The position numbers were made by a program, and so were the translations under genes. This document shows positions 17,174 through 59,124 of a stretch of 64,000 nucleotides of DNA, one piece after another (the first letter of the stretch is position 1; each line of letters opens with the position of its first letter). The stretch comes from Escherichia phage JS98, in sequence record NC_010105.1, one strand, 5' to 3'. The notes below the pieces were generated by a model. The model made no database searches, had not been told where the DNA came from, and saw nothing but the letters and a program-made list of their open reading frames with translations.

Positions 17174-17608
17174 TCAACCTCGGTTCATAAAGGCATTAAA
17201 AATCTGGTCGTCAATTGAATAAACCGGAGCTTCCAGAATTTTCAACAGACTGTTTTTGATATACTTGCTAGGGATATCCATATTAACGCGGTCGTTCAAT
17301 TCGTTGCCCGGGTGGATATCTTTAAATTCGAATCCTTCAAATTCAACCTTGTCCGGAAACCCGTCAGCGAAAAAATAAACCAATTGGTGCATTGCATTGA
17401 GCGAAAATAATTTAGACTTAACAGCAATAAGTTCTTGCCAATGGTTTAATTCTCTGTTAAGAAGTTTATGAGCGAATACAATTCTATCGTCGCTATCAAC
17501 AATAAAATAACCTAGGTACTGATGGTCGTCGCTCCAAAACATCCTGTATGCTTGTGCGTTTGGATTTTTACAACGAAGCTTTTTAATAACCAAAGTTCTG
17601 TTAATCAT
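17174..17608 (-). CDS. hypothetical protein
   Basis: start re-placed to ATG 17608 (MINRTLV), 1 nt after upstream stop. Confidence 0.4.
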   Translation of the reverse strand: MINRTLVIKKLRCKNPNAQAYRMFWSDDHQYLGYFIVDSDDRIVFAHKLLNRELNHWQELIAVKSKLFSLNAMHQLVYFFADGFPDKVEFEGFEFKDIHPGNELNDRVNMDIPSKYIKNSLLKILEAPVYSIDDQIFNAFMNRG

Positions 17609-17609
17609 T

Positions 17610-17903
17610 TTACTCACCTGTAACCTCTTTAACAATGTTTTTGTTATCGAAATTAGCGTCACAATACAAAACATAGTTGTACTGCATAACACCGGTTGAA
17701 GCTAATTGGTCGGACACTTCTTTAACCATGTCAGGACGGTCACGTTTAGTGATGTTCATGATATCGGCATAAATCTGATGTTCAACTGACTCTTGGTCTG
17801 CAGTCATAGACCATTCACAAAGGTCTTTATCCAATCCGGCAGTTACCGGAGCCGTGCCACATGATGCTACTGTAAGGATTGCTGCGATTAATAACTTTTT
17901 CAT
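17610..17903 (-). CDS. putative lipoprotein
   Basis: 97 aa; MKKLLIAAILTVASC signal peptide with lipobox; SD GAGGAG; early promoter upstream. Confidence 0.5.
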   Translation of the reverse strand: MKKLLIAAILTVASCGTAPVTAGLDKDLCEWSMTADQESVEHQIYADIMNITKRDRPDMVKEVSDQLASTGVMQYNYVLYCDANFDNKNIVKEVTGE

Positions 17904-17931: not shown

Positions 17932-17961
17932 ATAGTATCACTACCATAGACCGATGTAAAC
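17932..17961 (-). promoter_or_regulatory. early promoter
   Basis: GTTTAC-N18-TACTAT. Confidence 0.55.
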
Positions 17962-17962
17962 T

Positions 17963-18202
17963 TTATTTTAACGAATCTTCCAAATAAATTTTACGGAATT
18001 TACGTTTGGTCTGACGAATCTGACGCTTAGTAGGCTTCACAGGAAATTCGAAGAACTCTACATATTCCTGTTCATAATCGTTATGACCTACTGAAAGAAC
18101 TAGTTCCCAGCTGCTTACGGTGCGTTGGATAAACATATTATGCTTACCGAAAGATTTATTCCAAAAAGAACTAGGAGTTGGTTTCATTAGTACGATATTC
18201 AT
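17963..18202 (-). CDS. small basic protein, PTKRQIR-motif family
   Basis: 79 aa; C-terminal KPTKRQIRQTKRKFRK. Confidence 0.45.
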   Translation of the reverse strand: MNIVLMKPTPSSFWNKSFGKHNMFIQRTVSSWELVLSVGHNDYEQEYVEFFEFPVKPTKRQIRQTKRKFRKIYLEDSLK

Positions 18203-18343
18203 TTATTCCTCGTCTTCATGTTTATGAGCAATTTCTTCGAATTCGCTATCACAGTCTAAACAGGTTGCGTTGTCCCAAGCATCAAATACTGCTTGGTCTT
18301 CACAGACCGAACAACCACATACTACACATTCAAACTCTTCCAT
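18203..18343 (-). CDS. small Cys-rich zinc-ribbon-like protein
   Basis: 46-aa ORF not in track; MEEFECVVCGCSVCEDQ...CLDCD; leader identical to dmd leader. Confidence 0.4.
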   Translation of the reverse strand: MEEFECVVCGCSVCEDQAVFDAWDNATCLDCDSEFEEIAHKHEDEE

Positions 18344-18547
18344 TTAGATTTCCTCAATGCGGGCATCATATTCAAAAACTTTATTATCATTAACAAAGGC
18401 TTTCACCAGTGCATTATTCACTTCTGCATACTGCACCGTAACCCATTCAATCATTTTTTGGTCACTAACATCCAGAGCAGTTTCTTTGGTAAACATATTA
18501 CCATTTTCAAACCAACCAATAAACACTACGTTCTCTAATTTATACAT
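18344..18547 (-). CDS. dmd: Dmd-like antitoxin (inhibitor of RnlA/LsoA-type RNase toxins)
   Basis: 67 aa; VVFIGWFENGNMFTKE...QYAEVNNALVKAF matches T4 Dmd as recalled; between 61 and 41. Confidence 0.75.
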   Translation of the reverse strand: MYKLENVVFIGWFENGNMFTKETALDVSDQKMIEWVTVQYAEVNNALVKAFVNDNKVFEYDARIEEI

Positions 18548-18865
18548 TTAGATTTCCTCACAGAAGGCCCATTCAGCGTGATAAACCGTAGCGCCTTTAG
18601 TATCATTTAAACAAACCACATCTACCGGAGCAATTACACGATAAAGACGAGGTTCTCCTCCCACTGAACGAGCAGCTCGTCCAGCATAAATCTTAGCCAA
18701 ACCAATATCTTCAGTAAAGAACACACGATTCAGGTTTTTCTTACGACCAGTTTCAGACAGAACTCCTGTTTCCTCAGGAGGACAAAGCATATTACCAATA
18801 TTAGCAACACTACAACTTCCATGATAATACACTTTATATTCTGCTTTACAGTCGATGGTTTTCAT
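18548..18865 (-). CDS. hypothetical protein
   Basis: start re-placed to ATG 18865 (MKTIDC); track start 18877 is TTG. Confidence 0.45.
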   Translation of the reverse strand: MKTIDCKAEYKVYYHGSCSVANIGNMLCPPEETGVLSETGRKKNLNRVFFTEDIGLAKIYAGRAARSVGGEPRLYRVIAPVDVVCLNDTKGATVYHAEWAFCEEI

Positions 18866-18889
18866 TTTGTTCTCCAAGTTGATAGGTCT

Positions 18890-18918
18890 ATAGTATCATG
18901 CCTACAGGAGAAGTAAAC
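18890..18918 (-). promoter_or_regulatory. early promoter (GTTTAC-N17-TACTAT)
   Basis: atagta 18890-18895, gtaaac 18913-18918. Confidence 0.6.
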
Positions 18919-18931
18919 CCTTAAAACAAAA

Positions 18932-18949
18932 AAGGAGCCGAAGCTCCTT
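18932..18949 (-). terminator. intrinsic terminator after gene 41
   Basis: aaggagc-cgaa-gctcctt overlapping gp41 stop; minus strand followed by TTTTTTGTTTT. Confidence 0.6.
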
Positions 18950-59068: not shown

Positions 59069-59095
59069 TTTTAATCTCCTGTAGTTGATAGGTCT

Positions 59096-59124
59096 ATAGT
59101 ATCATGCCTACAGGAGAAGTAAAC
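59096..59124 (-). promoter_or_regulatory. early promoter (GTTTAC-N17-TACTAT)
   Basis: upstream of denV. Confidence 0.6.

Follow-up and report, generated by a model that had tools for sequence, protein, structure and literature searches.

A repeated cistron junction around a dmd homologue in an early operon of Escherichia phage JS98

Why should a phage carry exactly the same sequence before the start codons of two neighbouring genes? The question is raised by Escherichia phage JS98, a Dhakavirus (a JS10-like T4 relative) among the T4-like coliphages of the Tevenvirinae, of whose sequence record NC_010105.1 we analysed a stretch of 64,000 nucleotides (nt), hereafter the window. Here, a homologue of the T4 antitoxin gene dmd is followed directly by a gene for a mini protein of 46 amino acids (aa). 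A first-pass annotation of this DNA had described a dmd-like gene and a CxxC-rich 46-aa open reading frame (ORF) that used the same leader as dmd, and had suggested that the initiation module was duplicated and the two genes co-regulated. We propose that dmd was probably inserted as a cassette at the junction between an Arr-like gene and the mini gene, within a coupled early operon, and that the shared sequence is this junction, duplicated in the process.

All genes of the dmd region lie on the minus strand. The dmd homologue and the mini gene are the second and third cistrons of an early operon that has four genes in the order Arr-like, dmd, mini and TifA-like, with one early promoter and zero-length intercistronic gaps. 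The cistrons and their junctions are these:

18548..18862, minus strand: Arr-like gene, 105 aa, ATG start, product ending ..EWAFCEEI-stop, identified by phrog_2110 and by its AlphaFold2 (AF2) fold
18545..18560, minus strand: junction copy 1, TGAGGAAATCTAAATG, comprising the (C)-E-E-I-stop of the Arr-like gene, the Shine-Dalgarno (SD) sequence GAGGA and the dmd ATG
18344..18547, minus strand: dmd homologue, 67 aa, product ending ..YDARIEEI-stop, identified by Pfam PF17587, phrog_2102 and PDB matches
18341..18356, minus strand: junction copy 2, TGAGGAAATCTAAATG, comprising the I-E-E-I-stop of dmd, the SD sequence and the ATG of the mini gene
18203..18343, minus strand: gene for the acidic Cys mini protein, 46 aa, PHROG 13952, identified by profile match, substitution ratios, alignment and AF2 model
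18200..18214, minus strand: third cistron junction, GACGAGGAATAAATG, reading ..D-E-E-stop then ATG, with like architecture and another sequence
17963..18202, minus strand: gp61.4/TifA-like gene, 79 aa, basic, DUF7279, the last cistron, identified by PF23945 (8.6e-20) and phrog_2375

The repeat has a length of exactly 16 nt, being TGAGGAAATCTAAATG on the minus strand and catttagatttcctca on the plus strand. The 64 kb contain just two copies of it, at 18341-18356 and 18545-18560, and their flanks differ both upstream (..ttctgT and ..gcatT) and downstream (ATGt and ATGg). The second of these copies reaches 13 nt past the point at which the first-pass annotation had ended its feature, and so into the upstream gene. 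Allowing up to two mismatches yields no further matches to the 16-mer in the 64 kb, against 0.14 expected from shuffles, and the degenerate pattern GAGGAANNNTAAATG returns only the same two sites, against 0.03 expected. In both copies, GAG-GAA-ATC-TAA supplies the Glu-Glu-Ile-stop of the preceding cistron and is followed by ATG without any spacer, while the GAGGA found 7-8 nt before the ATG, inside the last codons of the upstream ORF, is the SD sequence. The 16-mer is a coding cistron junction and not an untranslated leader. The annotation was right that the same sequence precedes both genes, and right that it has been duplicated; what it took for a leader is the last three codons of the upstream cistron and a stop codon, fused to the next ATG.

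Further, the operon has the architecture of coupled junctions throughout: GAGGAAATC-TAA-ATG is present twice and GAGGAA-TAA-ATG once, in each case with the stop adjoining the start and the SD sequence within the upstream ORF. RNA at all three junctions folds no better than shuffled sequence (z = +0.2 to +1.2). The junctions are open initiation sites, not regulatory hairpins, and a regulatory RNA hairpin is ruled out by z values of at least 0. A generic phage-wide consensus is likewise ruled out as the origin of the 16-mer by the pattern scans of the window together with counts in IMG/VR, where pairs of the 16-mer 195-213 nt apart are confined to T4-like genomes of ~155-172 kb and single matches occur at chance level.

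The identity of the dmd gene itself is straightforward, and here the annotation was correct. Its 67-aa product matches the Pfam Dmd family PF17587 with 73.1 bits against a cut-off of 27 (E 2.3e-20, profile positions 3-59 of 60), phrog_2102 at 4.6e-33, and the PDB chains 5i8j_A (8.1e-22) and 5hy3_B (7.9e-17), the latter being T4 Dmd in its complex with LsoA. It is about 57-58% identical to T4 Dmd, and tblastn finds dmd homologues in 796 phage records. The gene is part of an early transcription unit, after gene 41 and before 61.4. By these matches it is a clear Dmd homologue, and its product would be expected to bind and block RnlA/LsoA-type HEPN RNase toxins, as T4 Dmd does. The T4 protein needs no partner to act on RnlA and LsoA (PMC8266594; PMC9391042), and T4 dmd and tifA share one early promoter (PMC9391042).

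The origin of the junction can be traced by comparing 18 loci that carry the mini gene: seven have no dmd, eight have a single dmd and three have two. In all seven dmd-less loci, the Arr-like gene directly adjoins the mini gene. These loci belong to the Kanagawavirus phages Q7622 and CIP9 (L004 and L005), a metagenomic relative (L022), Pectobacterium phage PM2 (L006) and three Logan contigs (L025-L027). The junction GAGGAAATCTAAATGGAAGA is present in five of the seven (L004, L005, L022, L026 and L027), and PM2 and L025 have shortened variants. In the eight loci with one dmd, which include the window, there are two copies of the junction, and in three Dhakaviruses (fDHCT2, 04086 and ABTNLsp5) two tandem dmd genes are accompanied by three copies. 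The C-terminus of Dmd follows the same pattern. It ends ..EEI in 8/8 single-dmd loci and in both paralogues of 3/3 double-dmd loci, and the EEI tail is missing from the Dmd proteins of T4 (..DCRG) and PhAPEC2 (..ADFR), whose genes have no mini gene next to them. The window Dmd has an extra four-residue tail, IEEI, that is not found in T4 and RB69-type Dmd; among the listed tblastn matches, all those under 80% identity have alignments that end at residue 61-63 of 67.

The same residues also close the Arr-like gene of other phages. In RB16, Acj133, phiR1-RT and PhAPEC2, this gene ends with TGTGAGGAAAT (C-E-E-I), and whatever gene comes next overlaps or abuts it. On sequence comparison, the junction originally belongs to the Arr-like gene, and many T4-like phages have kept the ..C-E-E-I end of that gene. 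Read in the simplest way, these comparisons make dmd an inserted cassette and the junction a duplicated one, with junction copies on both sides of each dmd as a result, because Arr-like/mini junctions exist without dmd, because loci hold zero, one or two dmd copies, and because the EEI tail is found only ahead of the mini gene.

The anatomy of the operon, the homologies, the conservation and the presence of zero, one or two dmd copies are direct observations; the following account as a whole we consider probable. Ancestrally, the Arr-like gene would have been joined straight to the mini gene, and dmd would have entered at this junction through short-homology recombination, giving one copy here and none or two in relatives. 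Duplication of the junction on insertion would have left Dmd with a foreign I-E-E-I tail, while the mini gene would have kept its original initiation region. Copying of dmd's leader by the mini gene is contradicted by the dmd-less loci, which place the junction with the Arr-like/mini pair and make dmd the newcomer. Ribosomes terminating at the end of one cistron may reinitiate, or load afresh, at the strong and unstructured SD sequence of the next, so that the four proteins of the operon would be made together early in infection. The suggested co-regulation of dmd and the mini gene holds insofar as both are part of one early transcription unit with zero gaps; it is owed to membership of that operon and not to the shared repeat. 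Dmd would then block RnlA/LsoA-type HEPN RNases as in T4, and the mini protein, as modelled, would bind one zinc and attach to a host protein through its acidic surface and tail, its most probable role being that of another counter-defence factor.

Several points weigh against this account. The direction of insertion is drawn from parsimony over 18 loci and not from a dated phylogeny, and the alternative direction would have a mini-gene cassette brought in behind dmd together with its own initiation region. The copies could also be kept identical in part by selection for strong initiation, and therefore identity alone is no proof of recent duplication. In addition, a Dhakavirus TifA homologue, that of vB_EcoM_005, was reportedly well expressed and neutralised none of the ToxN or TenpN proteins tried (PMC10853763); demonstrated anti-toxin roles do not extend to every gene of the operon. 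The mini protein has no significant fold match outside its own family, and the guess at its function consequently draws on charge, size and neighbourhood only.

Convergence offers a different origin for the repeat, with both junctions independently selected to the same strong SD/spacer/stop/start sequence. Its elements are favoured motifs, namely GAGGA 7-8 nt before the ATG and an abutting TAA-ATG, and the pattern GAGG-N5-9-TAAATG has seven minus-strand sites in the window. Further, the junction is unsubstituted among Dhakaviruses whose mini-gene synonymous sites differ by 20-50%, so functional constraint is present. However, the five pattern sites outside the 16-mer pair differ from it in sequence, as does the third junction of the same operon, and Dmd carries an EEI tail only where the mini gene comes next. 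In the Yersinia phage described below, identity extends into the coding 5′ ends, to a total of 24-25 nt, and the variation from zero to two dmd copies at precisely this site agrees with what recombination would predict. We regard convergence as decidedly unlikely, and prefer insertion of dmd with duplication of the junction.

Individual loci depart from the common form of the junction. In Yersinia phage vB_YenM_P8 (L007, 979-1225), the repeat is 24-25 nt long (GAGGAAATCTAAATGGAAGAGkTTG) and the N-terminus of Dmd is MEEF, the same as that of the mini protein, as if the breakpoint had fallen inside the mini gene. In the Mosigvirus Shigella phage Shf125875 (L003, 976-1425), the junction reads GAAGGAAATCTAAAATG, with two single-A insertions, and the Arr-like ORF of 149 aa has no stop there and runs over the dmd start; this reflects either a real frameshift or a sequencing error. 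The tandem dmd genes of some Dhakaviruses encode divergent paralogues of 64 aa and 67 aa that are ~55% identical (fDHCT2, L002, 1204-1602; 04086, L010, 705-1103; ABTNLsp5, L011, 1228-1626). The window has the 67-aa type only, and IME08 and vB_EcoM_005 have the 64-aa type only. The two types may target different toxins of the RnlA/LsoA family.

What, then, is the mini gene that marks this junction? Its product, MEEFECVVCGCSVCEDQAVFDAWDNATCLDCDSEFEEIAHKHEDEE, has six Cys residues, with CxxC motifs at 6-9, 11-14 and 28-31, and matches the uncharacterised family phrog_13952 over its full length (1.2e-30, positions 1-46 of 46). A tblastn search finds the gene in Dhakavirus, some Mosigvirus, Kanagawavirus, Mosugukvirus and a Yersinia phage, 68 phage records altogether, and it is absent from T4. 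In comparisons with ten relatives over codons 1-34, the ratio of nonsynonymous to synonymous substitution rates (dN/dS) lies between 0.03 and 0.19 where dS allows an estimate; in distant lineages, synonymous sites are saturated (proportion of synonymous differences, pS, 0.64-0.99) and the nonsynonymous proportion, pN, is 0.11-0.20. C6, C9, C28 and C31 are invariant in 16 aligned family members while C11 and C14 vary, and the distant 46-aa members recovered by exhaustive HMMER search retain, of the Cys residues, only these four. This pattern of substitution identifies the 46-aa ORF as a real gene under purifying selection, in agreement with the annotation of a Cys-rich gene at this place.

The AF2 model of the mini protein has a confidence (predicted local distance difference test, pLDDT) of 78 overall and 85-88 over residues 1-30. 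It places four short strands, with the two CxxC pairs at turns, ahead of an acidic helix at 29-44. With 16 acidic residues and one basic, the protein has a net charge of about -15. On this model, it would fold around a single zinc held by C6, C9, C28 and C31. Its two CxxC pairs, ~18 residues apart on predicted beta-hairpins, may resemble those of zinc ribbons and knuckles (rubredoxin-like, the ClpX zinc-binding domain, RING-type). Unlike these, it is a stand-alone protein of 46 aa, with an extremely acidic helix and tail and no significant match outside its phage family. Indeed, its best zinc-module matches in Foldseek are non-significant (E at least 0.36), and Foldseek searches of PDB and BFVD return no significant match to its fold beyond its own family. 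Pfam, NCBIfam and PADLOC give nothing significant, and NCBIfam gives a weak rubrerythrin-like match (E = 0.07). Searches of 5.8 billion proteins (word-indexed) and of 1.84 billion representatives (exhaustive HMMER) return few relatives of 41-47 aa, all from T4-like phages, in addition to one 90-aa protein and two low-complexity false positives. A literature search brought up neither the mini protein nor the dmd gene of Dhakavirus.

We speculate that the mini protein is a counter-defence factor, for example an acidic zinc-ribbon binder or decoy, because of its size, its charge, its accessory distribution and its neighbours. This proposal is tentative and stands somewhat short of an even chance. 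A fuller version of it is possible though doubtful: the mini protein would inhibit or decoy a host nucleic-acid-binding toxin or nuclease, or else modulate the Arr-like protein, and the junction would serve as a portable docking site through which anti-toxin cassettes that lack a promoter, for instance a single dmd or a pair of dmd paralogues, enter a translationally coupled early operon. Small acidic decoy proteins are known from phages in T7 Ocr and T4 Arn. The mini protein is comparable in being small, very acidic and encoded by an early operon in a counter-defence neighbourhood, a likeness that we intend as a mechanistic analogy only; it differs from Ocr and Arn in being much smaller and, by prediction, dependent on Cys and zinc, and no structural similarity to them was found.

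The 46-aa product might instead be a partner of Dmd, a co-antitoxin or chaperone against RnlA/LsoA whose stoichiometry is fixed by the junction, and the zero spacing between dmd and the mini gene in Dhakavirus, in some Mosigvirus genomes and in Yersinia phage P8 would fit such a partnership. However, the mini gene does without dmd in seven loci, dmd is found in 796 records against 68 for the mini gene, and T4 Dmd acts alone on its toxins (PMC8266594; PMC9391042). The two genes occur independently, and we reject the partnership on co-occurrence as very improbable. The Arr-like protein is another candidate companion: in 18/18 loci the mini gene follows the Arr-like gene within one operon, in seven it is directly coupled to it, and small cognate partners are known for ADP-ribosyltransferase-fold toxins, for example ParT, one of the fold matches of the Arr-like protein. 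The mini protein could then be an accessory subunit, regulator or inhibitor, with the ancestral junction reflecting a co-translated complex. Yet ~540 of the 608 phage records with an Arr-like gene have no mini gene, and one or two dmd genes are tolerated between the pair, which leaves this role rather unlikely in our judgement. Finally, the ORF might not be functional at all, being a spacer read as a gene by chance, with the repeat serving only the expression of the TifA-like gene. It is very short, belongs to no Pfam family and is unannotated in several records (JS10, IME08 and AnYang). Against this stand its low dN/dS, its full-length PHROG match, the four Cys residues that are invariant across ~45% sequence divergence and a model that is confident over residues 1-30. 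The selection signal in practice refutes a non-gene, to which we allow hardly any chance.

Some relatives have a second mini gene. In Kanagawavirus-type genomes, a second acidic CxxC...CxxC mini protein of 47 aa (MRQFTCDDCG...CQDC...GEEE) comes right after the first, with an ATGA overlap (Q7622, L004, 1335-1478; L022, 1635-1778).

The Arr-like gene that opens the operon is much more widespread. It occurs in 608 phage records at 62-100% identity, with hosts in Escherichia, Klebsiella, Acinetobacter, Aeromonas and Vibrio, and is absent from T4. Its product matches phrog_2110 at 1.7e-60. It falls under the cut-offs of Pfam (Arr-ms, 15 bits against 25, E=0.029) and NCBIfam (rifampin_ARR, 13 bits against 130), and a sequence search of PDB gave no match. 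The AF2 model, with a pLDDT of 85, finds the Arr structures 2hw2 and 9iaf as its top Foldseek matches (probability 1.0, template modelling score 0.6, 23% identity; E 8e-3 for 2hw2), followed by Tpt1/KptA, pertussis toxin S1 and ParT. As modelled, the protein is a minimal ADP-ribosyltransferase fold that is nearest to the rifampin ADP-ribosyltransferase Arr. An H in the motif YHGS and a Y in IYAGRA are invariant. A term search of a review of viral NAD (nicotinamide adenine dinucleotide)/ADP-ribose systems found no passage on an Arr-like gene of T4-like phages, and 'Arr' appeared there only in the reference list.

How does this locus compare with systems already described? The early operon dmd-tifA (61.5-61.4) of T4 is an anti-toxin island downstream of gene 41. 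The window locus is likewise directly downstream of the helicase gene 41 and has an early promoter, a Dmd and a 61.4/TifA-family DUF7279 protein, with spackle and a 61.2-like gene coming after. In contrast to the window, T4 has neither the Arr-like nor the mini gene and its Dmd, ending ..DCRG, has no EEI tail; dmd is the second of four cistrons in the window and the first of two in T4. In addition, the Dhakavirus TifA homologue did not neutralise the tested ToxN proteins (PMC10853763).

Two recombination processes known from T4-like phages are relevant here. Microhomology-mediated amplification and deletion have been described in T4 (Srikant et al. 2022; PMC9391042), where the same locus amplifies under selection and short-homology recombination at it has been shown experimentally. 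Modular shuffling mediated by promoter-early stem-loop (PeSL) elements, in which early-promoter and stem-loop cassettes are repeated, is documented in T4-like phages (Arbiol/Comeau/Krisch; PMC2839356, PMC4122927). As in both processes, accessory early genes at the window locus are gained, lost and tandemly duplicated between short repeats at cassette borders. Unlike a PeSL, the window repeat is a coding SD/stop/start junction without a promoter or a stable hairpin; therefore the inserted cassette brings no promoter of its own and joins a coupled operon that was already in place. We rule out the junction as a PeSL cassette, as the 16-mer contains neither promoter hexamers nor a stem-loop, and PeSL-like units border the operon instead.

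In T4-like phages, several inhibitors of host toxin-antitoxin defences, namely Dmd, TifA and AdfA, are gathered at the locus that follows gene 41. The window provides a base-pair-resolution case of how such inhibitors are added, lost or doubled: a promoter-less cassette enters at an SD/stop/start junction, which is thereby duplicated, and Dmd is left with a foreign tail. It also offers candidates for counter-defence screening. These include a small, strongly selected, narrow-range acidic mini protein with a predicted zinc site, and a widely conserved gene of Arr-like ADP-ribosyltransferase fold. Pairs of divergent Dmd paralogues are a further candidate, as they may widen the range of toxins that are blocked. 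The advance is a modest one. A known antitoxin, a mini family that is catalogued but uncharacterised, and a clear instance in nature of the short-homology shuffling of cassettes already described together extend known mechanisms and overturn none.

The 1-kb stretch around the dmd and mini genes shares 97.7% identity, as well as its gene order, with the Dhakavirus genomes MN04, dhaeg, CLB_P2 and JS10. Upstream, the stop codon of the helicase gene 41 is at 18948. The operon is bordered by these features:

18932..18949, minus strand: intrinsic-terminator-like hairpin AAGGAGCTTCGGCTCCTT and T-run, with a 7-pair stem that includes 4 GC pairs, directly after the gene 41 stop
18890..18917, minus strand: T4-type early promoter TTTACT-N16-TACTAT ahead of the four-gene operon, matching the T4 early consensus
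17932..17960, minus strand: next early promoter, TTTACA-N17-TACTAT, before the spackle gene, forming the downstream operon boundary

The terminator-like hairpin is the upstream boundary of the operon. The T4 early promoter consensus is TTTACW..TAYWAT (PMC4122927); the promoter at 18890..18917 scores under the sigma-70 threshold that was applied in the promoter scan. An Rfam search found no RNA family anywhere in the 64-kb window. An early-promoter cassette of 42 nt, GTTTACTTCTCCTGTAGGCATGATACTATAGACCTATCAACT, which includes the promoter at 18890..18917, has two exact copies, at 18877..18918 and 59083..59124, both on the minus strand. The core of this cassette, TACTATAGACCTATC, which consists of the -10 hexamer and downstream bases, has 10 sites with at most one mismatch, all on the minus strand, against 0.19 expected. 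The cassette and its core repeats look like PeSL-type early-promoter repeats.

The TifA-like gene at 17963..18202 is labelled 61.4 in the JS10 annotation, and its product, a TifA-family protein (DUF7279), is nearly identical to the vB_EcoM_005 homologue. The gene that comes after spackle, at 17174..17692 on the minus strand, shares with T4 gp61.2/AdfA only the C-terminal ..FNAFMNRG. Its match to Pfam AdfA (E = 0.008) covers residues 158-172 only, with the remainder belonging to PHROG 8539. The gene may represent an anti-DarT factor that has become chimeric or been replaced.

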